DNA from: Squalus acanthias
Lineage: Eukaryota
Assembly (NCBI GenBank): GCA_030390025.1
Contig: CM059432.1
Coordinates: 40,426,001 to 40,490,000 of the forward strand
Direction of reading: 5' to 3'
DNA length: 64,000 nt
Positions 358-57,652 of the stretch are shown piece after piece. A program made the position numbers and the translations under genes. The notes beneath the pieces were generated by a model. That model saw only the letters and a list, made by a program, of their open reading frames with translations, was not told where the DNA came from and ran no database searches. How positions within the stretch are numbered: the stretch's first letter is position 1; every line of letters begins with the position of its first letter.

Positions 358-1639
358 ATCATGGATTTGTGAAAGGTAGGTCATGCCTGACAAACCCGAT
401 AGAATTTTTTGAGGAGGTGACTAAAGTAGTGGACAGGGGAATGTCTATGGATGTTATTTATATGAACTTCCAGAAGGCATTTGATAAAGTCCCACATAAG
501 AGATTGTTATCTAAGGTAGAAGCCCACAGAATTGAGGGCAAATTATTGACCTGGTTAGGAAATTGGCTGAGCGGCAGGAGACAGAGAGTAGGGATAATGG
601 GTAGGTACTCAAATTGGCAGGATGGGACTAGTGGTGTCCTGCAGGGATCTGTGTTGGGGCCTCAACTATTCACAATATTTATTAACGACTTAGATGATGG
701 CATAGAAAGTCATATATCCAAATTTGCCGATGACACTAAGATAGGCGGCATTGTGGGCAGTGTAGATGAAAGCATAAAATTACAAAGGGATATTTGATGG
801 ATTAAGTGAATGGGCAAAACTGTGGCAAATGGATTTCAATGTAAGCAAATGTGAGGTCATCCACTTTGGACCTAAAAAAGATAGAACAGGGTACTTTCTA
901 AATGGTGAAAAGCTAAAAACAGTGGAGGTCCAAAGAGACTTGGGGGTTCAGGTCCATAGATCATTAAAATGTCATGAACAGGTAGAGAAAATAATTATAA
1001 AGGCTAATGGAATGCTGACCTTTATATCTAGAGGACTAGAGTACAAGGGGGTAGAAGTTATGCTGCAGGTATACAAAACCCTGGTTAGACCACTCCTGGA
1101 ATACTGTGAGCAGTTCTGGGCACCACACCTTAGGAAGGATATATTGGCCTTGGAGGGAGTGCAGTGTAGGTTTACCAGAATGATACCCAGAGGGTTAAGT
1201 TACAGTGAGAGATTACACAAATTAGGGTAGTATTCCCTAGAATTTAGAAGGTTAAGGGGTGATCTGATCGAAGTTTTCAGGATATTATGGGGAAAAAGAT
1301 AGGGTAGATAGAGAGAAACTATTTCTGCTGGTTGGGGAGTCTAGGACTAGCGGCATAGTCTAAAAATTAGAGCCAGACCTTTCAGGAGTGAAATTAGGAA
1401 ACACTTCTACACACAAAGGGTGGTAGAAGTTTGGAACTCTCTTCCGCAAACGGCAATTGGTGCTAGATCAATTGATAATTTTAAATTGGAGAGTGATAGT
1501 TTTTTTGTTAACCAAAGGTGTTAAGGGATATGGGCCAAAGGCGGGTATATGGAGTTAGATCACAGATCAGCCATGATCTCATTGAATGGCGGAACAGGCT
1601 CGAGAGGCTGAATGGCCTACTCCTGTTCCTATGTTCCTA
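358..1639 (+). mobile_element. CR1 LINE, 5'-truncated (RT and 3' UTR), decayed
   Basis: HGFVKGRSCLTN, FQKAFDKVPH, QGSVLGP and KFADDTK motifs; frameshift or stop near 795 and 1228; GTTCCTAT tail. Confidence 0.92.
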
Positions 1640-10594: not shown

Positions 10595-13500
10595 AATCAT
10601 AGAATGGTTACAGCACAGAAGGAGACCATTCGGCCCATCAAGCCCGTGCCGGCTCTCTGCAAGAACACTTCAGCTAGTCTCACTCCCCCGCTGCCCTGCA
10701 AATTGTTTTCCTTCAGGTACTTATCCAATTCCCATTTGAAAGCCACGATTGAGTCTGCTTCCACCACCCTTTCAGGCAGTGAATTCCAGATCCGAACCAT
10801 TCGCTGCGTAAAAAAGTTTTTCCTCATGTCGCCTTTGGTTCTTCTGCCAATCACCTTGAATCTGTGTCCTCTGGTTCTCGAACCTTCTGCCAATGGGAAC
10901 AGTTTCTCTCTATCTACTCTGTCTCGACCCCTCATGATTTTGAATACCTCTATCAAATCTCCTTTCAACCTTCTCTGCTCTATGGAGAACAACCCCAACT
11001 TCTCCAGTCTATCCACATAACTGAAGTCCCTCATCCCTGGAATCATTCTCGCAAGTCTTTTCTGCACCCTCTCTAAGACCTTCACATCCTTCCTAAAGTG
11101 TGGTGCCCAGAATTGGACACAATACTCCAGTTGAGACTGAACCAGTGTTTTATGAAGGTTCATCATAACTTCCTTGCTTTTGTACTCTATGCCTCTATTT
11201 ATGAAGCCCAGTATCCCGTATGCTTTTTTAACCGCTTTCTCAACCTGCCCTGCCACCTTCAACGATTTGTACACATATACCCCAGGTCTCTCTGTTCATG
11301 CACCCCCTTTAGGATTGTACCCTTTAGTTTATATTGCCTCTCCTCGTTCTTCCTACCAAAATGTATCACTTAGCACCTTTCTGCGTTAAATTTCATCTGC
11401 CATGTGTTCGCCCATTTCACCAGCCTGTCTATGTCTTCTTGAAGTCTATCACTATCCTCCTCACTGTTCACTATACCTCCAAATTTTGTGTCATATGCAG
11501 ATTTTGAAATTGTGTCCTGTACTCCCAAGTCCAAGTCATTAATATATATCAAGAAAAGCAGTGGTCCTAGTATCGACCCCTGGGGAACATCACTGTATAG
11601 GTTCCTCCAGTCCGAAAAACAACCGTTCACCACTACTCTCTGTTTCCTGTCACTTAGCCAATTTTGTATCCATGCTGCCACTGTCACTTTTATTCCATGG
11701 GTTTCAACTTTGCTGGTAAGCCTATTATGTGGCAATTTATCAAATGTCTTTTGGAAGTCCATATCCACCAAGTCAACCGCATTGCCCTCATCAACCCTCT
11801 TTGTTACCTCATCAAAAAACTCGATCAAGTTAGTTAAACACAATTTGCCTTTAACAAATCCATGCTGGCTTTCCTTATTTAATCCATACTTGTCCAAGTG
11901 ACTGTTAACTTTGTCCCTGATTATCGTTTCCAAAAGCTTCCCCACTACCAAGGTTAAACTGGCCTGTAGTTGCTGGGTTTAACCTTACACCCTTTTTTGA
12001 ACAAGGGTGTAACATTTGCAATTCTCCAGTCCTCAGGCACCACTCGAGTATCTAAGGAGGATTGAAAGATTATGGTCAGTACCTCCGCGATTGCCTCCTT
12101 AACCTCCTTCAGCATCCTAGGATGCATCCCATCCGGTCCTGGTGACTTATCAATTTTAAGTTCAGACAGCTTTTCTAGTACCTCCTCTTTATCAATTTTT
12201 ATCTCATCCAGTAACTCCACTACCTCTTCTTTCACTATGACTTTGGCAGCATCTTCTTCCTTGGTGAAGACAGATGCAAAGTACTCATCTTACTGCAATT
12301 ATATAGGGCCCTGGTGAGACCACACCTGGAGTATTGTGTACAGTTTTGGGGGGGAAAACGTTGGTTGCTTTGCGCCTCCCGTTAGCGCCCTAAGAGCCCG
12401 GACGCGGCGGCGCCAACGCCTCCCGCGAAATTCAGCAGGAGGTTAGCGGCAGCGGTAACCGTTAGCGCCGCCGATGACATCATCCCCTCCAGGACATCCT
12501 CTCTCTCCAGCACTGTAACATTCTCCTTAACCAATACTGCCACCCCACCTCCTTTCTTTCCTTCCCTATCTTTCCTGAACGCCTTATATCCAGGAATATT
12601 TAAAACCCAATCCTGCCCTTTTTTGAGTGAGGTCTCCATTATTGCCACAACATCATATTCCCATGTGGCTATTTGCACCTGCAGCTCACTTACCTCATTT
12701 ACCATGCTTCGTGCGTTTACACACATGCACTGTAAACCTGTGTTAGACCTTCTTGTATTCTCTCTTAATCTGACCCCACCTAATACCTTACTATTTCTTA
12801 CTCTAGTGCTATCTGTCTCGCCCCATCCTTTGTGTGCTCTGTTTCTCCTTTCTTATACTACATCCTGGTGCCCATCCCCCTGCCAAATTAGTTTAAACCC
12901 TCCCAACAGCACTAGCAAACCGCGCGCCCCCCCCCCCCCCCCCCCCCCTTGTTGAGGATATTGTTTCCGGCTCTGTTGAGGTGCAACCCATCTGACTTCC
13001 CCCAGAACTGGTCCTAATGTCCCAGGAATCTAAAGCCTTCCCTCCTGCACCATCTCTCCAGCCACAGATTCATCTGCTCTATCCTCCTATTTCTATACTC
13101 ACTAACTCGTGACACAGGGAGTAATCCAGAGATTACTACCTTTGAGGTCCTGCTTTTAAATCTCTTTCCTAGCTCCCTAAAGTCTGCCTGCAGGACCTCA
13201 CCCCTTTTTCTACCTATGTCGTTGGTACCAATATGGACCTATCCTCTGGCTGTTCAGCCTTCCCCCTCAGAATGTTCTGCAACCACTCAGTGACATCTTT
13301 GACCCCTGGCACCAGGGAGGCAACTTACCATCCTGGAATCACGTCTGCGGCCGCAGAAACGCCTGTCTGTTCCCCCCTAGCGAATCCCTTACCACTATTG
13401 CCTTCCTGATCTTCCTCCTCCCCCCGGTACAGCTGAGCCACCCGTGGTGCTGTGGAATTGACTCTGGCTGTACTCCCTAGAGGAACCAGCACCCTCACCA

Positions 13501-15179: not shown

Positions 15180-15400
15180 TGATCATCTCTTAATGTCTCT
15201 TAATATCTCTTAATCACTCCTTTTGTTCTTTCATCCCCTCCCCCTTTTCCCAGCTTTATCCTTGCCTTAAATCTATTTCATTTCCTGCTATTTCCAGTTC
15301 TGACGAAAGGTCTTCGACCTGAAACGTTAACTCTGTTTCTCTCTCCACGGATGCTGCCTGGCCTGCTGAGTTTTTCCAGCGTTTTCAGTTGTTATTTACT
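15180..15400 (+). mobile_element. Penelope pLTR fragment containing a minimal hammerhead ribozyme motif
   Basis: CTGACGA-AGGTC-TTC-GACCT-GAAAC at 15300-15325; matches the pLTR of the element at 26079. Confidence 0.75.
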
Positions 15401-25937: not shown

Positions 25938-28900
25938 CAAGGAGTGAATCGAGCCCATCATCCGCAGTGCAGCGAACCTGGTCAGGAACAGAGAGGAGAG
26001 CCGGATATAAGGAGCGGTGGAGAGTAACCCCAGACTCGCAGAGCAGCGAACCTGGTCGGGAACAGAGAGGAGAGCCGGAATAACAACAGAAAATACTGAC
26101 AACACTGAGCAGGTCAGGCAGCATCCGTGGAGAGAGAAAAACAGAGTTAGCATTTCAGGTCGATGACCCTTCGTCAGAACTGGAAAAAGTTAGAGATGTA
26201 ACAGATTTTTAAGCAGGTGTAGGGGCAGGGAAAGGGAGGAGGGGAGGAAAGAACAAAGGGAAGGTCTGTGATAGGGTGGAAGGCAGGAGAGATTAAGAGA
26301 CAAAAGGGATGATGGTGCAAGGCAAAAGGAGATGGTAATGGGACAAGACAAGACACAAAAGATGACTAGATGAGGTGTAAATGGCAATGGCAGAATCATC
26401 AACAGCTGCCATGTGAGAAAATAAAAATAAAAAATATTTAAAAAATATAAGGGCAGAGGTTATGGTCTGAAATTGTTAAACTCGCTGTTGAGTCCAGGAG
26501 GCTGTAAAGTGCCTAATCGAAAGATGAGGTGCTGTTCCTCGAGCTTACGTTGAGCTTCATTGGAACAGTGCAAGAGGCAGAGGACGGTGAGGTCTGAGTG
26601 GGAGTGAAGTGGAGAATTAAAGTGACAGGCGACCGGAAGCTTGGGGTCACACTTATGGACAGAACAGAGGTGTTCCGCAAAGCAGTCACCCAATTTGCAT
26701 TTGGTCTCCCCAATGTAGAGGAGACCGCATCGTGAGCAGCGAATACAGTATACTAAATTGCAAGAAGTACAAGTAAATCGCTGTTTCACCTGAAAGGAGG
26801 GTTTGGGGCCCTGGACAGTGGAAAGGGAGGAGGTAAAAGGGCAGGTGTTGCATCTCCTGCGCTTACACGGGAAGATGCTGAGAGAAGGGGTGTTGGGGGT
26901 GATAGAGGAGTGGACCAGGGTGTCGCGGAGGGAGTGTTCCCTTCGGAATGCCGAAAGGAGAGGGGAGGGGAAGATGTGTTTGGTGGTGGGATCACACTGG
27001 AGGTGGCGGAAATGGCGGAGGATGATCCGTTGAATGTGGAGGCTGGTGAGGTGAAAGGTGAGGACAAGGGGAACCCTATCGTGGTTCCGGGAGGGAGAGG
27101 AAGCGGTGAGAGCAGAAGTGCAGGAAATAGAACGGACACGGTCAAGGGTCGTGTCAACCACGGTAGAGGGGAATCCTCGGTTGAAGAAAAAGGAAGACAT
27201 ACCGGAAGCACTTGTATGAAAGGTGGCGTTGTCAGAGCAGATGCGGTGGAGACGGAAAAACTGGGAGAATGGAATAGAGACCTTACAGGAAGCGGGGTGG
27301 GAGGAAGTGTAGTCCAGGTAGCTGTGGGAGTCAGTGGGCTTATAGTGAATGTTTGTCAATAACCTATCCCCAGAGATGGAGACGGAGAAGTCAAGGAACC
27401 ATGTGAAGGTGAGGGAAGGGTGGAAATTGGAAGTGAATTAAATTTTCTAGTCCATAGCGAGAGCAGGAAACGGCACCGATACACTCATCACTGTACCGGA
27501 AAAAGAGGTGAGGGAGGGGACCTGAGTAGGTCTGGAACAAAGAATGTTCCACATATCCCACGAAAAGGCAGGCATAGCTCGGAGCCATGCGGGTTCCCAT
27601 AGCAACACCTTTAATTTGGAGGATGTGAGTGGAATCAAAGAAGAAGTTGTTCAATGTGAGAACAAGTTCAGCCAGGCGGAGGAGGGTGGTGGTGGATGGG
27701 GACTGGTTGGGCCTCTGTTCAAGGAAGAAGCGGAGCGCCCTCAGGCCATCCTGGTGGGGGATGGAGGTGTAGAGGGATTGGACGTCCATAGTGAAAAGAA
27801 GACGGTTGGGGCCAGGAAACTGTTAAAGTGGCGGAGGGCGTCGGAAGAGTCGCAAATGTAGATGGGAAGAGAAAAAATAGAGTCGAGATAGGAAGAAATC
27901 AGTTCTGTGGGGCAAGAACAGGCTGAAATGATGGGTCTACCAGGGCAGCCCTGTTTGTGGATCTTGGGAAGGAGGTAGACTATGAGGTTGACAACCATGG
28001 AGGGAAGATTTCCAGAGAAGATGAGGTCAGTGACAGTCTTGGAAACAATGGCTTGATGTTTGGTAGTGGGGTCATGGTCCAGGGGGAGGTAGGAAGAGGT
28101 GTCAGAGAGTTGGTGTTCAGCCTCCGCATGGTAGAGGTCAGTTCGCCAAACAACAACAGCACCACCCTTGTCAGCAGATTTAATGGGAGAGGCAGATATA
28201 AGGAGTGGCGGGGAGAAGCCCCAGACTCACAGAGTAGCGAATCTGGTCGGGAACAGAGAGGAGAGAGAAAAATAAAATCCAGGAGTGACATCACAGGATA
28301 GCTGGTAACTGATTGGTTGGTAAAGGTCACATTGTTTTTTTGCTCTTCAAGTTAGGGGCCGGGGTTAAATAGTTGGCGAGGAATTAAGCAGAAACTTGAA
28401 GATTAGTAACAGTTAATACTATATTAAATTAGTTACTGTTATATTATATTAATAACTTGAATCAGATACATCTTAGTCTTAAGTTTCTGTAAGTTAGTTA
28501 ATAGTCTATTAAATAGAGGCATGGCAGGTCAGCTCAGTCCCATGGAATGCACATCCTGTGCCATGAGGGAAATCCAGGACACTTCCCGTGTCCTGGACAA
28601 CCACGTGTGCAGGAGGTATCGTCAGCTGGAGGAACTCGAGCTCTGGGTTTTGGAGCTTGAGCAGAATTTGGCATCACTGCAGTGTATCCATGAGGCTGAG
28701 AGCTTCGTGGATAGCACGTTTCAGGAGGTGGTCACCCCACAGATAAGGAGTGCGCAGGCAGAGAGGGAATGGGTGACCGCCAGACAGAAAAGGAGGACCA
28801 GGCAGCTAGTGCAGGAGTCCCCTGAGTGTATCTCGCTCTCCAACCAGTATTCGGTTTCGAGTACTGGTGAGGGCAATGGTTCTTCTGGGGAGTACAGCCA

Positions 28901-30023
28901 GAGACAAGTCCGCGACACCACAGGGTGGCTCAGCTGTACAGCGGGGGAGGAAGAAGCGTGGGAGAGCAATAGTGGTAGGGGATTCGATAGTTAGGGGAGC
29001 AAACAGGCGTTACTGCGGCCGCAGACATGACTCCAGGATGATATGTTGCCTCCCTGGTACCAGGGTCGAGGATGTCACTGAGCGGCTGCAGAACATTTGG
29101 AGGGGGAAGGGTGAACAGCCAGAGGTCGTGGTCCATAATGGTACCAATGACATAGGTAGAAAGAGGGATGCGGTCCTGCAGGCAGATTTTAGGGAGCTAC
29201 GAAAGATTAAAATGCATGACCTCAAAGGTAGTAATCTCCGGATTGCTCCCGATGCCATGTGCAAGTGAATATAGAAATAGGAGGATAGAGCAGGTGAATG
29301 TGTGGCTGGAGAGATGGTGCAGGAGGGAGGGCTTCAGATTCCTGGGGCATTGGGGCTGATTCTGGGGGAGGTGGGACCCGTATAGGTCGGACAGGTTGCA
29401 CCTCAACAGGGCCGGAACCAATATCCTCATGGGGAGGTTTGCTAGTGCTGTTGGGGAGGGTTTAAACTAATTTGGCAGGGGGATGGGCACCACACTGTAA
29501 CATTAGAAAGGGGAAATAAAGTGCTCAAAGAATTGGGAGAGGCAGAGAGCACTAAAGTAAGAAATAGTAAGGTATTAGGTGGGGTCCAACTAAGAGAGAA
29601 TACAGGATGGTCTAAGATGGATTTACAGTGTACGTGTGTGAACACACGAAGCGTAGTAAACAAGGTAAGTGAGCTGCAGGAACAAATAGCCACATGGGAA
29701 TATGATGTGGCAATAACTGAGACCTGGCTCAAAAAAGGGCAGGATTGGGTATTAAATATTCCTGGTTATAAGGTGTTCAGGAAAGATAGGGAAGGAAAGA
29801 TAGGAGGTGGTGTGGCAGTATTGGTTAAGGAGAGTGTTACAGTGCTGGAGAGGGAGGATGTCCTGGAGGGGTCAAGGACAGAATCTATATGGTTAGAGTT
29901 AAGAAATAATAGAGGTGCCATTACACTACTAGGTGTATTCTATAGACCACCAAATAGTGGGATAGATATGGAGGAGCAAATTTGCAGAGAAATTACAGAG
30001 AGGTGCAAGAACAATAGAGTAGT
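25938..30023 (+). mobile_element. CR1 LINE 5' part (tandem-repeat 5' UTR, ORF1, EN), 3'-truncated and interrupted by Penelope
   Basis: 5' UTR repeats of about 74 bp; GTGACATCAC/CTGATTGG motifs; ORF1 at 28521 with GDS and GTND esterase motifs; EN ITETWL...FYRPP; homology stops near 30023. Confidence 0.88.
26079..28184 (-). mobile_element. Penelope-like element (Neptune-type), 5'-truncated, decayed RT + GIY-YIG
   Basis: YLLPKIHK...GRPI, DVQSLYT, GVAMGTRMAPSYA, Cys linker CKRRRCNTC, VYCIRC...YIGET; pLTR with hammerhead core at 26143-26183. Confidence 0.92.
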
Positions 30024-49727: not shown

Positions 49728-50033
49728 CTAAAAACAGAAAATGCTGGAAATACTCAGCAGGTCAGGCAGCATCTGTGGAGAGAGAAACAGAGTTAACGTT
49801 TCAGGTCGATGACCCTTTGTCAGAACTGGAAAAAGCTGGAGATCAAACAGGTTTTTAAGCAAGTGCAGGGGCAGGGAAAGGGGGGAGGGGAGGAAAGAAC
49901 AAAAGGGAAGGTCTGTGACAGGATGGAAGGCAGGAGTGATTAAGAGATGGTGCAAGGCCTGACCTGCTGAGTATTTCCAGCATTTTCTGTTTTTATTTCA
50001 GATTTCCAGCATCCACAGTATTTTGCTTTTGTA
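49728..50033. mobile_element. Penelope pLTR inverted/direct fragment pair
   Basis: Minus pLTR piece then plus piece from 49957; flanking 14-bp direct repeat TTCCTAAAT(T/G)AGTC. Confidence 0.85.
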
Positions 50034-50353
50034 TTCCTAAATGAGTCTTTCTGATCAATTTTTATTCATTTGAAATTAACACCCAATTAATCCTAGATTT
50101 ATTAGATTAAATTAAGCCAAGGTAGGACCACAGGACATAAATTTAAATTAGTGGAAAGTAACATTTAAATTAGATAGTGATTATCTTTATATGGATTCTG
50201 TGTTTTATAAATAGTAGCATCGTGAACTAAAACAAATAAATAATGTTAAACCTGTATAAATCATTGGTTTGGTGGCTGTTAAATAGACAGTTTTGGTGCA
50301 GAGAGATTCACTGATGATATCAGGGACGAGAGGCTTTAGTTATGAAGAGAGAC

Positions 50354-53226
50354 GGTAGCATAGTGGTTATGTTACTGGACTAGTAATTCAGAGGCCTGGA
50401 CTAATGATCCAGGAACGTAAAGTTCAAATCCCACCACGGCAGCTGGGGAATTCAGTTTAATTAAGTAAAAATCTGGAGCAAAAAGCTAGTAGCAGTAATA
50501 TTGACCACAAAACTATCGGATTGTCATAAAAAACCATCTGCTTCACGAATCTGCCGTCCTTACCCTGGTCTGGCCAAAATGTGATTCCAGACCCACAGCA
50601 ACGCAGTTGACCCCTAACTGCCCTCTGAAATGGCCTAGCAAGCCACTCAGTTGTAACAAACCGCTACAATAATAAGAATACAACCTAGGCATCGGCTTCA
50701 ACCCTGCAAAGTCCTCCTCACTAACATCTGGGGATTTGTGCCAAAAGTGAGAGAGCTGTCTGACATATTCATACCCACTGAATGATACCTTTCAGCCAGT
50801 GTCCCAGACTGAGAGAACCAACATGAGGGAAAAACCTCGTCTCTCACCAATCTACCTGCCGCAGATGCATCTGTCCATGACAGCATTGGTAGCAGTGATC
50901 ACCACACAGTCCTTGTGGAGACAAGATCCCGTCTTCACACTAAGGACACCCTCCATCGTGGAGTCATAACGGCACAGAAGGAAGCCATTTGGCCCATCGA
51001 GTCCGTGCCGGCTCTCTGTAGAGCAATCCAGTCAGGCACTACCGCTGTGCCAAATGGGATAGATTCAGAACAGATCTAGCAGCTCAAAACTGGGTATCCA
51101 TGAGGCGCTGTGGGCCATCAGCAGCAGCAGAATTATATTCCACCACAATCTGTAACCTCATGGCCCGGCATATCCCTCACTCTACCATGACCATCAAGCC
51201 AGGAGTGCAGAAGAGCATGCCAGGAGCAGCACCAGGTGTACCTAAAAATGAAGTGCCAACGTGGGGAAGCTGCAACGCAGGACTACATGCATGCTAAACA
51301 GTGGAAGCAGCATGTTATAGACAGAGCTAAGCGATCCCACAATCAGCGGATCAGATCAAAGCTCTGCAGTTCTGCCACATCCAGTCTTGAATGGTGGTGG
51401 ACAATTAAACAACTAACTGGAGGAGGAGGCTCCATGAATATCCCCATCCTCAATGATGGCGGAGCCCAGCATGCGACTGCAAAAGACAAGGCTGAAGTGT
51501 TTACAACCATCTTCAGCCAGAAGTACCGAGTGGATGATCCACCTCGGCCTCCTCCTGAGGTCCCCAACATCACAGAAGCCAGTCTTCAGCCAATTCGATT
51601 CACTCCACGTGATATCAAGCAATGTCTGCGTGCACTGGATACAACAAAGGCTATGGGCCCCGACAGCATCTCGGCTGTCGTGCTGAAGACTTGTGCTCCA
51701 GAACTAGCCGCGCCTCGAGCCAAGCTGTTCCAGTACAGCTACAACACTGGCATCTACCCGACAATGTGGAAAACTGCCCAGGTATGTCCAGTCCACAAAA
51801 AGCAGGACAAATCCAATCCGGCCAAAAAGTAGGACAAATCCAATCCAGCCAATTACCGCCTCATCAGTCTACTCTCAATCATCAGCAAAGTGATGGAAGG
51901 TGTCGTTGACAGTGCTATCAAGCGGCACTTACTCACCAATAACCTGCTCACTGATGCCCAGTTTGGGTTCCGCCAGGACCACTCAGCTCCAGACCTCATT
52001 ACAGCCTTGGTCCAAACATGGACAAAAGAGCTGAATTCCAGAGGTGAGGTGAGAGTGACTGCCCTTGACATCAAGGCAGCATTTAACTGGGTGTGGCATC
52101 AATCTAGTAAAATTGAAGTCAATGGGAATCAGGGGGAAAACTCTCTACTGGCTGGAGTCATACCTAGCACAAAGGAAGATGGTTGTGTTTGTTGGAGGCC
52201 ACTCATCTCAGCCCCAGGACATCGCTGCAGGAGTTCCTCAGGGCAGTGTTCTAGGCCAAGTCATCTTCAGCTGCCTCATCAATGACCTTCCCTCCATCAT
52301 AAGGTCAGAAGTGGGGATGTTCGCTGATGATTGCACAGTGTTCAGTTCCATTCGCAACTCTTCAGATCATGAAGCAGTCCATGCCCGCATGCAACAAGAC
52401 CTGGACGACATTCAGGCTTGGGCTGATAAGTGGCAAGTAACATTTGCGCCACACAAGTGCCAGGCAATGACCATCTCCAACAAGCAAGAGTCTAACCACC
52501 ACCCCTTGACATTAAGTGGCATTACCATCGCTGAATCCCCCACCATCTACATTCTGGGGGTCACCATTGACCAGAAACTTGACTGGACCAGCCACATAAA
52601 TACTGTTGCAACAAGAGCAAGTCAGAGGCTAGGTATTCTGTGGCGAGTGTCTCACCCCCTGACTCCCCAAAGCCTTTCCACCATCTACATGAAACGAGTC
52701 AGGAGTGTGATGGAATACTCTCCACTTGCCTGGATGAGTGCAGCTCCAACAACACTCAAGAAGCTCAACACCATCCAGGACAAAGCAGCCCGCTTGATTG
52801 CCACCCCATCCACCACCTTAAACATTCACTCCCACCACCACCAGCGCACCGTGGCTGCAGTGTGTACCATCTACAAGATACACTGCAGCAACACGCCAAG
52901 GCTTCTTCGGCAGCACCTCCCAAACCCACGACCTCTACCACCTAGAAGGACAAGGGCAGCAGGCGTACGGGAACACCATCACCTGCAAGTCCCCCTCCAA
53001 GTTACACACCATCCTGACTTGGAAATATGTCATCGTTCCTTCATCGTCGCTGGGTCAAAATCCTGAAACTCCCTCCCTAACAGCACTGCGGGAGTACCTT
53101 CACCACAAGGACTGCAGCGGTTCAAGGTGGCGGCTCACCACCACCTTCTCAAGGGCAATTAGGGATGGGCAATAAATCCTGGCCTTGCCGGCAACGCCCA
53201 CATCCTAGGAACGTATTTAAAAAAAA
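50354..53226 (+). mobile_element. CR1-Zenon-type LINE with a tRNA-derived 5' end, internally deleted and decayed
   Basis: A box 50356-50366, B box 50422-50431; APE motifs KVLLTNIWG, TE*YL, SDH; RT motifs ALDIKAAF, GVPQGSVLG, MFADD; C-terminal SVMEYSPLAW; host CR1 resumes on both sides. Confidence 0.88.
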
Positions 53227-53544
53227 GAAAATGGAGCTCTTTTCACTAAATCACCAAAGGTTAATAGTAGATCTCATAAAGGTGCTCAAACTTATGAAGT
53301 GTTTTAATAAAGTAATAAGAGAAAAACAATTTCTGCTGGTTGGCGAGTTGGTAACTAGAAGGCATAAATTTAAGATCATCACTTAAAAGAACAAAGGGAA
53401 AGGTTAGGAGATGTTTTGATTTGGAGGGTTATTTGGACATGTTCTTATGTTGCTCCCATTTAAAAAATTATATTTTACCTCGTCAGGTCATATTGGGTAG
53501 ACAACCGATACAACCAAAGTACAATGTAGTGCTATTCACCCCTG

Positions 53545-54049: not shown

Positions 54050-56210
54050 CCGTGCTAAATGGGATAGATTCAGAACAGATCTAGCAGCTCAAAACTGGGC
54101 ATCCATGAGGTGCTGTGGGCCATCAGCAGCAGCAGAATTGTATTCCACCACAATCTGTAACCTCATGGCCCGGCATATCCCTCACTCTACCATTACCACC
54201 AAGCCAGGGAACCAACCCTGGTTCAATAAGGAGTATAGAAGAGCATGCCAGGAGCAGCACCAGGCGCACCTAAAAATGAGGTGCCAACCTGGGGAAGCTG
54301 CAACACAGGACTACATGCATGCTAAAAAGCGGAAGCAGCATGCTATAGACAGGGCTAAGCGACCCACAATCAACGGATCAGATCAAAGCTCTGCAGTCCT
54401 GCCACATCCAGTCGTGAATGGTGGTGGACCATTAAACAACTAACGGGAGGAGGAGGCTCCAAGAATATCCCCATCCTCAATGATGGTGGAGCCCAGCACG
54501 TGAGTGCAAAAGACAAGGCTGAAGCGTTTGCAACCAATTTCAGCCAGAAGTGCCGAGTGGATGATCCATATCGGCCTACTTCCGAGGTCCCCACCATCAT
54601 AGAAGCCATTCTTCAGCCAATTCGATTCACTCCATGTGATATCAAGAAATGGCTGAGCGCACTGGATACAGCAAAGGCTATGGGCCCCGACAACATCCCG
54701 GCTATCGTGCTGAAGACTTGTGCTCCAGAACTATCCGTGCTGCTAGCCAAGCTGTTCTAGTACAGCTACAACACTGGCATCTATCCGACAATGTGGAAAA
54801 CTGCCCAGGTATGTCCTGTCCACAAAAAGCAGGACAAATCCAACCCGGCCAATTACCGCCCCATCAGTCTACTCTCAATCATCAGCAAAGTGATGGAAGG
54901 CGTCATCGACAGTGCTATCAAGCGGCACTTACTCACCAATAACCTGCTCACTGATGCCCAGTTTGGGTTCCGCCAAGACCACTCGGCTCCCGACCTCATT
55001 ACAGCCTTGGTCCAAACATGGACAAAGGAGCTGAATTCCAGAGGTGAGTTGAGAGTGACTGCCCTTGACATCAAGGCAGCATTTGACCGAGTCTGGCATC
55101 AAGGAGCCCTAGTACAACTGAAGACAATGGGAATCAGGGGGAAAACGCTCCACTGGCTGGAGTCATACCTAGCACAAAGGAAGATGGTTGTGGTGGTTGA
55201 AGGTCAATCATCACACATCGCTGCAGGAGTTCCTCAGGGCAGTGTCCTCGGTCCAACCATCTTCAGCTGCTTCGTCAATGACCTTCCCTCCAACATAAGG
55301 TCAGAAATGGAGATGTTCGCTGATGACTGCACAGTGTTCAGCGCCATTCGCAACTCCATAGATAATGAAGCAGTCCATGCCCGCATGCAACAAGACCTGG
55401 ACGACGTTCAGGCTTGGGCTGATAAGTGGCAGGTAACATTCGCGCCACAGAAGTGCCAGGCAATGACCATCTCCAACAAGCGAGAGTCTAACCACCTCCC
55501 CTTGACCTTCAATGGAGTACCATCGCTGAATCGCCCACTATCAACATCCTGGGGGTCACCATTAACCAGAAACTTAACTGGACCAGCCACATAAATACTG
55601 TGGCAACAAGAGCAGGTCAGAGGCTAGGTATTCTGTGGCGAGTATCTCACCTCCTGACTCCCCAAAGCCTTTCCACCATCTACAAGGCACAAGGAAGGAG
55701 TGTGATGGAATACTCTCCACTTGCCTGGATGAGTGCAGCTCCAACAACACTCAAGAAGCTCGACACCATCCAGGACAAAGCATCCCGCTTGATTGGCACA
55801 CCATCCACCACCTTAAACATTCACTCCCTCCACCACCGGCGTACCGTGGCTGCAGTGTGTACCATCTACAAGATGCACTGCAGCAACTCACCAAGGCTTC
55901 TTCGGCAGCACCTCCCAAACCCACGACCTCTTCCACCTAGAAGGACAAGGGCAGCAGGCGCATGGGAATACCACCACCTCCAAGTTCCCCTCCAAGTCAC
56001 ATACCATCCTTACTTAGAAGTATATCGCCGATCCTTCATCGTCGCTGGGTCAAAATCCTGGAACTCCCTACCTAACAGCATTGTGGGAGTACCATCACCA
56101 CACGGACTGCAGCGGTTCAAGAAGGCGGCTCACCACCACCTTCTCAAGGGCAACTAGGGATGGGCAATAAGTGCTGGCATTGCCAGCGACGCCCTGATCC
56201 CATAAATGAT
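54050..56210 (+). mobile_element. CR1-Zenon-type LINE, 5'-truncated second copy
   Basis: Highly similar to 51040-53215; RT motifs NYRPISLL, QFGFR, AFDRVWH, FADD; stops and frameshifts. Confidence 0.9.
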
Positions 56211-56835
56211 TTTTTTTTAATGTATTCATTCTGATCACTTTTATCCTGTCTAAGGAAATCCATCTCATTTATATTTGTTATTGATTTTAATTATTTGAGA
56301 TGGGGATGTTGTTCATATCTTCCCTTGTGAATATTTGGAGGAAGTAATCATTTGAAGTACTTACTATCTCGTGCCTATTATTTGTTCTGAGTCTATTTGC
56401 ATCTTTTATTGTTCTCCCCTCTTCTCTGACTACTCTCTGAAAGATTTTCTGACTGTTATTTTTTTTTAATTATTCCAATTGTGAAAACTATTTTCTGTTG
56501 AATTGCCCACTCGAAACAAAACTGAGGATCCTCAACCTCATTTCACCTGACAGCCATGAGGGAGAGAATGCTTGTGCATGTGTGTATGAGATGGAGAGAC
56601 AGAGAGAGAAAGAGAGAATGGGGAGAGTAGAGGGAACCTCAGACAGACAAGAATTCTTTATTTCATGAACTGGGGCTAAATTCAAATCAGGACTCACAAA
56701 GATGAAAGAACAAAGTTTTAATCTACCGCATCATCCAGCTCCATGGGTCACTTTTTTAAAATAAAATAACTTTCACTTAATATTGTTAGAATTAAGAGAG
56801 TTATTATTTACATGTTTATGCAAGAATTCACGCAC

Positions 56836-57456: not shown

Positions 57457-57652
57457 TGAGAAGTCGCACAACACCAGGTTATAGTCCAACAGTTTTATTT
57501 GAAATCACAAGCTTTCGGAGCGGCTGCTCCTTCTTCACCTGACGAAGGAGCAGCAGCTCCGAAAGCTTGTGATTTCAAATAAAACTGTTGGACTAGAACC
57601 TGGTGTTGTGCGACTTCTCACTTTTGTCCACCCCAGTCCAACACCGGCATCA
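57457..57652. mobile_element. Penelope pLTR mini-palindrome with hammerhead core
   Basis: 80-bp arms 57457-57536 and 57541-57620; TSD TTAAACAATTTTG; CTGACGA at 57539. Confidence 0.88.

Follow-up and report, generated by a model that had tools for sequence, protein, structure and literature searches.

Which RNA polymerase transcribes a protein-coding LINE that begins like a SINE? Textbooks class LINEs as coding, autonomous elements transcribed by Pol II, and SINEs as non-coding parasites transcribed by Pol III. The LINE at 50354-53226 of a 64,000-nucleotide stretch of the Squalus acanthias genome (hereafter the window) belongs to a family that puts a SINE promoter on a coding element with no Pol III stop signal and no normal start codon. 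A preliminary description of the locus had proposed that its tRNA-type head and coding body are one unit, which may be transcribed end to end by Pol III with a coding sequence purged of T runs. A type 2 Pol III promoter consists of A and B boxes, and vertebrate Pol III stops at four or more T (T4+).

Architecture of the window copy

The element at 50354-53226 is a decayed copy of an abundant elasmobranch Zenon-type LINE, with one ORF that encodes an endonuclease and a reverse transcriptase and with ORF1 absent. GGTAGCATAGTGG begins at 50354, the A box TAGCATAGTGG occupies 50356-50366 and the B box GTTCAAATCC occupies 50422-50431. The family 5′ terminus lies 6 bases upstream of 50354 and reads GGGAAC elsewhere and AGAGAC at 50348-50353 here. 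The features of this copy and of its neighbours are as follows.

50348..50440, + strand: tRNA-derived head (sequence and family 5′ ends), 50348 being the likely true 5′ end
50441..50685, + strand: remaining 5′ leader, which with the head makes up the 5′ portion of the SINE in this genome (SINE-type loci, contig joints)
50678..50680, + strand: ATA, a remnant of the sole ATG site that the family has nearby, which is not in the frame of the main ORF (copy alignment)
50700..50960, + strand: APE endonuclease remnant, with ~350-390 bases deleted at ~50810 (family copies, tblastn, Pfam)
50961..51034, + strand: private insertion, a piece of another repeat, missing at this place in all other copies
51035..53162, + strand: linker and reverse-transcriptase coding region, broken (tblastn, Pfam RVT_1)
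53075..53226, + strand: 3′ tail common to LINE and SINE, namely the last ~29 codons, the 64-base 3′ UTR and A8
53228..53419, + strand: right half of the older CR1-type element hit by the LINE insertion (protein and nucleotide matches)
54050..56209, + strand: second family copy, 5′-truncated, without head, T4+ run or poly-A tail, then T9

By tblastn of the family ORFs onto the window, endonuclease remnants were found at 50672-50941 and reverse transcriptase at 50843-52862, the latter 67-85% identical to the family ORFs, in which Pfam recognized Exo_endo_phos (5.1e-8, on L042) and RVT_1 (1.2e-27). This bears out the earlier reading of an A/B-box head followed by APE and RT coding sequence without ORF1; an endonuclease frame that opens ~330 bases into the element leaves no space for ORF1, and no second ORF upstream of that frame was found in the family copies. 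The window copy is damaged at several places: between element bases 457 and 457 other copies have 350-390 additional bases, the private insertion (element bases 608-681) matches elsewhere in L007, L029 and L031, and a 27-base tandem duplication carrying a stop lies in the reverse-transcriptase region at 51797-51850. The ORF terminates at the TAG of 53160-53162, an end set by better-preserved copies, and is followed by the 64-base 3′ UTR, which has an AATAAA-like motif, and by A8 at 53219-53226. Classification of the element itself as a SINE was rejected, the family being ~3.25 kb long with a ~965-codon ORF as against a short non-coding element.

The proposal that the LINE had interrupted an older CR1 held firmly on one side. 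The right flank matches CR1 protein at 53228-53377 (E 2.5e-7), and 53242-53419 aligns to window positions 1233-1435 with a score of 86 against a shuffle maximum of 57. On the left, 50296-50352 is colinear with 1159-1212 in a weak alignment that 11% of shuffles equal in score, and this segment is probably the left half of the interrupted CR1. The T9 run begins at 56210, directly after the second copy. The sole Rfam hit in the window, a sub-threshold match to MIR396, lies outside the element.

The head belongs to a LINE family and to a SINE

The family is ~3.25 kb long and comprises a 334-base leader (head plus SINE body), an ORF of ~965 codons, a 64-base 3′ UTR and an A tail. With an endonuclease-only query, which carries no head sequence, 29 other loci were retrieved; 20 of these reach the head terminus GGGAAC-GGTAGC, the remaining nine are truncated at scattered positions, and no alternative 5′ leader occurs among the 29. 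With a query spanning the head/body junction, head, leader and coding body were found to follow one another in this order at 24 of 29 loci, and continuity from head to tail was seen in 9 of 19 extended loci. The claim that head and body are one unit is thus strongly supported across the family, and a different 5′ UTR on other full-length copies, which the preliminary description had named as grounds for abandoning it, was looked for in the 29 loci and is absent. Copies at unrelated loci start at the identical base, (G)GGAAC being the 5′ end in 11 of 17 full copies, whose flanks are unrelated. Most copies end in an A5-A12 tail, and no target-site duplications were evident in the 17 full copies. 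None of the 51 copies retrieved is intact at full length, and the longest open frames (815-887 codons) lie mostly within 5′-truncated copies. All full-length copies examined are broken, and therefore present activity cannot be assumed.

The head is also present in published Zenon elements. Zenon LINEs are consistently described as lacking ORF1 and having a poly-A tail (Stuart et al. 2026, Genome Biol Evol, PMC13343379), and the consensuses SquAca_Zenon-1 to -3 and CarCar_Zenon-1 (Supplementary Table 2, PMC13343379) were compared by eye over their first ~400 bases. Over this 5′ region the SquAca consensuses are nearly identical to the family copies, head included, with no structural difference noted, which agrees with the 'CR1-Zenon type' label given earlier. 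The consensuses, which come from two shark orders, begin with such heads, and by eye the variation within the A and B boxes is confined to degenerate consensus positions. The head on the Zenon consensuses is already published as sequence, and its nature is not described in the main text of PMC13343379, where tRNA, Pol III, polymerase III and promoter do not occur. Our literature search found no description of a tRNA-headed, Pol III-type coding LINE. In the same by-eye comparison of the first ~400 bases, the hagfish consensus has several T4+ runs and no head, and the four shark consensuses have no T4+ run.

The same 5′ sequence also makes up the genome's SINE. SINE-type loci (L022, L029 and L030) consist of element bases 1-332 fused directly to the last 118-152 bases, and contigs of four sequencing runs contain the family together with joints from 50633-50669 to 53096-53160. 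These results demonstrated that the genome's SINE is the LINE with the ORF removed. Internal-deletion forms with varied junctions exist as well (L015, L019, L026 and L027), and the contig joints also vary. Such variation is what would be expected if the window element were a chance adjacency or a one-off chimera, formed by a SINE landing beside a 5′-truncated LINE or by a LINE-to-SINE RNA template jump in one insertion; against this, the identical head-to-ORF junction recurs at independent loci with unrelated flanks (24/29 and 20/29) and in the published consensuses of other species. Chance adjacency was accordingly rejected for the family, and we consider an accidental origin of this kind extremely improbable.

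The head retains promoter elements better than tRNA structure. Among 34 family heads, the A box is at its expected position in 26 and the B box in 28, with 65 bases from start to start in most. ARAGORN reported zero tRNAs in the whole window, and in pseudogene mode it scored 7 of the 34 heads as tRNA-like, four of them as Thr-AGT. The cloverleaf with acceptor stem of a tRNA gene is missing; by contrast with that class, the head has the tRNA-derived sequence with A and B boxes of SINE2, and the ordered boxes at workable spacing, with no T4+ run before the intended end, of a type 2 Pol III unit. The folding of the head is no better than that of shuffles (z = -0.70), so that a stable tRNA fold was not found, a point against a Pol III reading of the head.

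The same structural data bear on a further explanation, that the head acts as an RNA module for 5′ processing of read-through transcripts, stability, protein binding or ribosome recruitment. The precise common 5′ end could also arise by processing, as in R2, where a ribozyme sets the 5′ end from a Pol I co-transcript, and the stem of the second arm seems, by eye, to be kept by paired changes in two published consensuses. However, there is no acceptor stem, most heads are missed by ARAGORN, the fold equals that of shuffles, and the best-kept parts of the head are the A and B boxes; we therefore regard a role as RNA module as unlikely.

T-run depletion on the sense strand

The earlier by-eye count was confirmed: the sense strand has zero T4+ runs in 50354-53226 and zero in 54050-56209, the T9 follows the second copy, and A4+ runs are frequent (18 and 8, respectively). 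Across 32 aligned copies there are 24 T4+ runs in total, and 16 copies have none. No T4+ column bin is common to more than two of the 32 copies, and therefore the ancestor had zero, while 14 A4+ bins are common to at least half. Other LINE families had been named as the proper comparison, and the two controls from the same genome show no avoidance, with 9-11 shared (ancestral) T4+ runs in 2.7 kb and 5 in 1.67 kb. As for the CR1 copies in the window that had been said to contain T4+, 358-1639 does (four runs, sense strand +), whereas 28521-30023, labelled CR1 earlier, had no match to any LINE protein query used.

The depletion extends to shorter runs. The observed/expected ratio of TT is 0.75 in the family versus 1.14 and 1.16 in the two control families, T3+ runs number 9.0 against 21.4 expected (controls, 38.8/29.9 and 17.6/14.1), and AA is at ~1 in all three. 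At the codon level, TTT makes up 0.20 of Phe codons, the lowest share among 16 pyrimidine-ending codon pairs (the others average 0.39), as compared with 0.65 and 0.56 in the two control families.

The strength of the T4+ absence depends on the null. Mononucleotide shuffling of the window copy gave 4.1 expected T4+ runs and P(0)=0.011. Dinucleotide shuffling gave 1.5-2.3 per full copy and ~1.9 for the ancestor, with P(0) ~0.15, and synonymous-codon shuffling gave ~2.5 per ORF, with P ~0.08; under the synonymous shuffle 29.1 T4+ runs were expected and 10 observed. The absence of T4+ on one ancestral sequence is thus weak evidence (P ~0.01 to 0.15 by null), and the TT depletion could come from another cause. 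The proposed purging of T runs therefore stands in its direction, with an ancestral zero, TT and TTT depleted and controls not, and is weak as a test on a single sequence (P ~0.08-0.15).

Polymerase, translation and related systems

Because a tRNA-type promoter is combined with the absence of a Pol III stop signal, the full-length RNA of this Zenon-type LINE may be made by Pol III from the tRNA-derived head, a reading to which we give only slightly less than an even chance. The head would drive the SINE in this same context, so initiation by TFIIIC and Pol III would be expected on intact LINE copies too; meeting no terminator within the element, the polymerase would read on until the first T run of the flanking DNA. 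Translation of this uncapped RNA would proceed via non-AUG or internal entry, and the protein would use target-primed reverse transcription, beginning at the tail, to copy the RNA that encodes it. We know of no cellular element for which 3-kb Pol III transcripts and efficient translation of uncapped RNA are established. The AATAAA-like motif and the A tail, as in Pol II LINEs, are features that run counter to Pol III transcription.

The coding start was compared in 46 copies. The site equivalent to 50678 is ATG in 31, ATA in 14 and TTA in one; it lies 98 bases from the endonuclease anchor in 20 copies, and in 33 the spacing is 2 modulo 3. The modal ATG is hence out of frame, and in 28 of the 46 copies no ATG precedes the endonuclease domain in its frame. 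By eye, L148 shows no canonical -1 frameshift heptamer that would lead from the out-of-frame ATG into the endonuclease frame. As read from these alignments, the missing in-frame ATG would be compatible with unconventional translation.

Alternatively, the family may be an ordinary Pol II LINE in which transcription starts at or close to base 1 from an internal promoter in the 334-base leader, a reading that we hold to be quite possible, though doubtful. The head would then be a relic of past SINE recombination or template switch, or the SINE would be LINE-derived with only the short form using Pol III, and the scarcity of T runs would reflect codon usage or selection against U-rich destabilizing or premature-polyadenylation motifs. 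According to Kojima 2018 (PMC5786205), LINEs are generally transcribed by Pol II from internal promoters, by which the 5′ end is fixed, and the 3′ end of the present family with its AATAAA-like motif and A tail fits. So does the T-run record, in that the T4 absence is not significant under the dinucleotide or codon nulls and the depletion is visible already at TT and TTT, which is not needed for Pol III termination. However, a SINE of high copy number is driven by this very head and leader, which makes Pol III initiation on the LINE hard to avoid; both boxes persist in the LINEs of two shark orders, the two Pol II-type LINE families of the genome show no T-run avoidance, and cap-dependent scanning would meet no in-frame AUG.

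Extended to the group, Pol III transcription would make the elasmobranch Zenon elements end-to-end Pol III autonomous retrotransposons, with a T-run-free coding strand, uncapped AUG-less translation, and shark SINEs as their ORF-deleted forms; we put this forward more tentatively, as somewhat less than an even chance. If Pol III makes the RNA, the family would supply a natural example of a protein-coding transcript of this polymerase, the origin of a SINE by simple deletion from its own LINE would be shown, and a natural model of cap-independent translation would be at hand. If the wider picture is true, the divide between SINEs and LINEs would be erased by a protein-coding Pol III gene.

Two kinds of SINE/LINE pair are close to what is seen here. 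In sharks and rays, the HE1 SINE and HER1 LINE are listed as a tRNA-derived SINE with a LINE tail (table in PMC3747384). SINEs of this kind likewise have A and B boxes in a head of tRNA origin, and their 3′ tail is common with a CR1-group LINE; HE1 may be the SINE seen in Squalus acanthias here. In the textbook HE1/HER1 type only the tail is common and the LINE starts with a 5′ end of its own, whereas here the coding LINE itself bears the head and the entire SINE 5′ part. Bipartite LINE-derived SINEs, among them Bov-tA and SINE2-1_ACar, consist of a small-RNA head, a LINE 5′ part and a LINE 3′ part (Kojima 2018, PMC5786205), an order that the present SINE has as well. In the model set out there, the head joins an internally deleted LINE, and LINEs are Pol II units (PMC5786205).

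What distinguishes the present family is that the head stands on a full-length coding element. The bipartite pattern is also said to be found only in the RTE and Vingi clades, as against the CR1 group here. R2 non-LTR elements are co-transcribed by Pol I, and their RNA is uncapped, has a ribozyme-made 5′ end and lacks an AUG. If the RNA of the Zenon-type LINE is indeed made by Pol III, this coding LINE would resemble R2 in relying on a polymerase other than Pol II and in lacking a normal start to its ORF; R2 differs in its polymerase, its clade, its site-specific insertion, its restriction-like endonuclease and its lack of an internal promoter.

Anatomy of the Zenon element and its window copies

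The observation of a tRNA-headed LINE without T4+ runs (four or more T on the sense strand) at 50354–53226 was confirmed and extended to the whole family, the elasmobranch Zenon-type LINE of the CR1 group. The window element starts with GGTAGCATAGTGG (sequence, 50354), an AT-rich leader precedes its endonuclease and reverse-transcriptase coding sequence, and its 3′-end reads ...GGGCAATTAGGGATGGGCAATAAA... and then A8 at 53219–53226. Sequence inspection and tblastn bore out the preliminary description of A box, B box, endonuclease and reverse transcriptase.

Features of the two Zenon copies in the window
50356–50366, +, A box TAGCATAGTGG (sequence)
50422–50431, +, B box GTTCAAATCC (sequence)
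50672–50941, +, endonuclease remnants (tblastn of family ORFs onto the window)
50843–52862, +, reverse transcriptase (tblastn of family ORFs onto the window)
54050–56209, +, second Zenon copy, 5′-truncated and headless (sequence, tblastn)

Since ARAGORN called no tRNA gene across the entire window and Rfam gave no match inside the element, the head (the 5′ segment with both boxes) is tRNA-derived, yet not a tRNA. Judged against other family copies, the window element is a dead copy: ~350–390 bases of endonuclease are missing at about 50810, a private insert of 74 bases lies in the endonuclease region (50961–51034), and a 27-base tandem duplication carrying a stop spans 51797–51850. The insert is a fragment of another repeat, and this fragment is also present at loci L007, L029 and L031. 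The proposed splitting of an older CR1 copy by the insertion was clear on the right flank, which continues as CR1, and less firm on the left, which is colinear and weakly aligned. The second copy ends (56200–56218) with ...CCCATAAATGA, without an A tail and directly into T9; two further loci (L080 and L090) end similarly, with AATA/AAT and then T7–T9.

Across the family, a leader of ~334 bases, consisting of the head and a SINE body, is followed by a single ORF of ~965 codons with the endonuclease first and the reverse transcriptase second (Pfam Exo_endo_phos and RVT_1 on the better copies), its stop lying within GGCAATTAGGG (window 53160–53162), and then by a 64-base 3′ UTR, in which an AATAAA-like motif occurs, and an A tail; ORF1 is absent. 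The family is very large (an initial protein-search pass gave 520,138 candidates), and every full-length copy examined was broken, none being intact. The longest open frames (815–887 codons) occur mostly in 5′-truncated copies, and because stop-free frames of 815–874 codons are kept by 5′-truncated L142, L143, L144 and L146, the family was active fairly recently, although an intact full-length copy was not found.

The head as part of the element

Among 34 LINE heads, the A box was found at the expected position in 26 and the B box in 28, with a start-to-start spacing of 65 bases in most. ARAGORN in pseudogene mode gave tRNA-like calls for seven of the 34, four of them Thr-AGT, and the L145 head folded no more stably than its shuffles (z = −0.70).

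Using a head/body junction query against the same genome, with the window element then mapped onto 29 other loci, leader and coding body were found in the same order at 24; three were SINE-like (L022, L029 and L030), with element bases 1–332 adjoining the last 118–152 bases, and two were larger internal-deletion forms (L026 and L027). The element extended from the head's first bases through the tail, about 3.2–3.3 kb, in 9 of 19 extended loci. Because this query itself held the junction, the search was repeated with a head-free one, 361 bases of endonuclease missing from the window copy and present in no SINE. The alignment reached the head terminus at 20 of 29 independent loci, and the remaining nine were truncated at scattered points; no alternative 5′ leader was found among the 29. 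Head and body thus hold as one unit with either query. A SINE adjacent by chance is excluded by the recurring junction and by the lack of another leader at the loci from the head-free query, and chance chimerism is a very improbable account, ranking last among the readings considered. The start (G)GGAAC-GGTAGC is shared by 11 of 17 full copies with unrelated flanks, which places the true 5′-end six bases upstream of the previously proposed 50354; in the window copy these bases (50348–50353) read AGAGAC.

Depletion of T runs

As had been seen by eye, neither window copy contains a T4+ run. Over 32 aligned copies, T4+ runs totalled 24 and were absent from 16 copies; no T4+ alignment bin was common to more than two copies, and 14 bins of A4+ (four or more A) were common to at least half. 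This lack of sharing beyond two copies shows an ancestral sense strand without T4+. About 4.4 runs were expected under a mononucleotide null (P(0) about 0.01), 1.5–2.3 per copy under dinucleotide shuffling (P(0) about 0.15), and about 2.5 per ORF under synonymous-codon shuffling of natural open frames (P(0) about 0.08). Over 33.7 kb of open frames, 10 runs were observed against 29.1 expected by synonymous shuffling, the pieces being related and therefore not independent tests. The proposed depletion against codon-shuffled ORFs was thus borne out in direction, with weak single-sequence statistics. That weakness, like the AATAAA-like tail, favors the main rival to Pol III transcription, namely that the LINE is transcribed as a Pol II unit from an internal promoter; the head would then be a relic, and the scarcity of T runs would stem from something else.

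Other LINEs of the genome provide a clearer contrast than these null-model tests do, and this contrast counts against the Pol II unit. Depletion relative to other LINE families was confirmed with two controls, the CR1 family of window 358–1639 and the family of 11325–12214 (−).

T runs in the Zenon family, the CR1 family of 358–1639 and the family of 11325–12214 (−), in that order
Ancestral (shared) T4+: 0 in about 3.25 kb; 9–11 in 2.7 kb; 5 in 1.67 kb, in all ten copies
TT observed/expected: 0.75; 1.14; 1.16
T3+ (three or more T) observed/expected: 9.0/21.4; 38.8/29.9; 17.6/14.1
AA observed/expected: about 1 in all three
TTT share of Phe codons: 0.20; 0.65; 0.56

Among 16 pyrimidine-ending codon pairs in Zenon ORFs (average 0.39), no share was lower than that of TTT, and the Phe pair was unremarkable in each control family. 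The contrast with both controls indicates that the strand-specific T-run avoidance is real and peculiar to the Zenon family; Pol III termination is its putative cause. The RT-bearing repeat of 11325–12214 (−), traced at L155–L173, is a ~1.67-kb unit whose 5′- and 3′-ends coincide at no fewer than 10 of 19 loci, and looks like a fixed-length partial element, not randomly truncated LINE copies.

Translation start, transcription and prior description

The sole ATG near the ORF start, AAGAATGAAACC, lies exactly where SINE homology stops. It is separated from the endonuclease anchor by 98 bases in 20 of 46 copies and shows one and the same out-of-frame phase in 33; in 28, no in-frame ATG occurs after the upstream stop and before the endonuclease. 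ATA stands at this site in 12 of 17 older-subfamily copies, as well as at window 50678–50680. In one copy (L148, element bases ~333–480), the ATG opens a 48-codon ORF (MKPDGP...) overlapping the endonuclease start, and a few codons past the upstream stop there is an ACG in frame; no canonical slippery heptamer was seen in L148. Because most copies lack an in-frame ATG, translation of the main ORF seems to require initiation at a non-AUG codon or internally, which fits the cap-independent translation proposed in the preliminary description without proving it.

The first ~332 bases are common to SINE and LINE; SINE bodies derived from LINE 5′ parts have reportedly been described in no clades but RTE and Vingi. 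For tRNA-derived SINEs, Pol III drive from the head is generally accepted. Should this hold for the SINE here, intact LINE copies would recruit the identical complex, and, with no T4+ in the LINE, nothing would halt Pol III before the flank. Pol III transcription of the LINE from its head, predicted from the shared head and the absent T4+ runs, is the reading that we tentatively place first, and the earlier interpretation as a whole is partly supported. The Pol II unit, against which the conserved A and B boxes and the missing AUG also speak, is a substantial possibility that comes second; a purely RNA-level role of the head is unlikely and ranks behind both.

Elasmobranch Zenon elements have been described as lacking ORF1, bearing a poly-A tail and being in no repeat database (Stuart et al., 2026, PMC13343379), in a main text where tRNA, Pol III, polymerase III and promoter do not occur. 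The consensuses SquAca_Zenon-1 to -3 and CarCar_Zenon-1 in its Supplementary Table 2 open with the same head, whereas the hagfish Zenon consensus in the supplement, read by eye, starts differently and has several T4+ runs within the leading 400 bases. When the 5′ ~400 bases of the consensuses were compared by eye across the two shark orders, differences in the A and B boxes were confined to degenerate consensus positions, and neighboring head sequence diverged more. In Kojima (2018, PMC5786205), the bodies of SINEs are traced to LINE 5′ parts, and LINEs are treated as Pol II units. Full-text literature searches turned up no account of a LINE that is tRNA-headed or Pol III-driven. The family is already published as sequence, and the head and its implications are undescribed in the literature searched.

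Elsewhere in the window, a sub-threshold Rfam match of 57475–57603 to plant MIR396 (27.7 bits, gathering score 80, E 0.025) is most likely due to chance. A short abundant repeat at 49729–50040 contains an exact 39-base inverted pair (49729–49767 and 49957–49995) and has relatives at 26079–26300, at 15219–15397 and in more than 10 of the loci examined.
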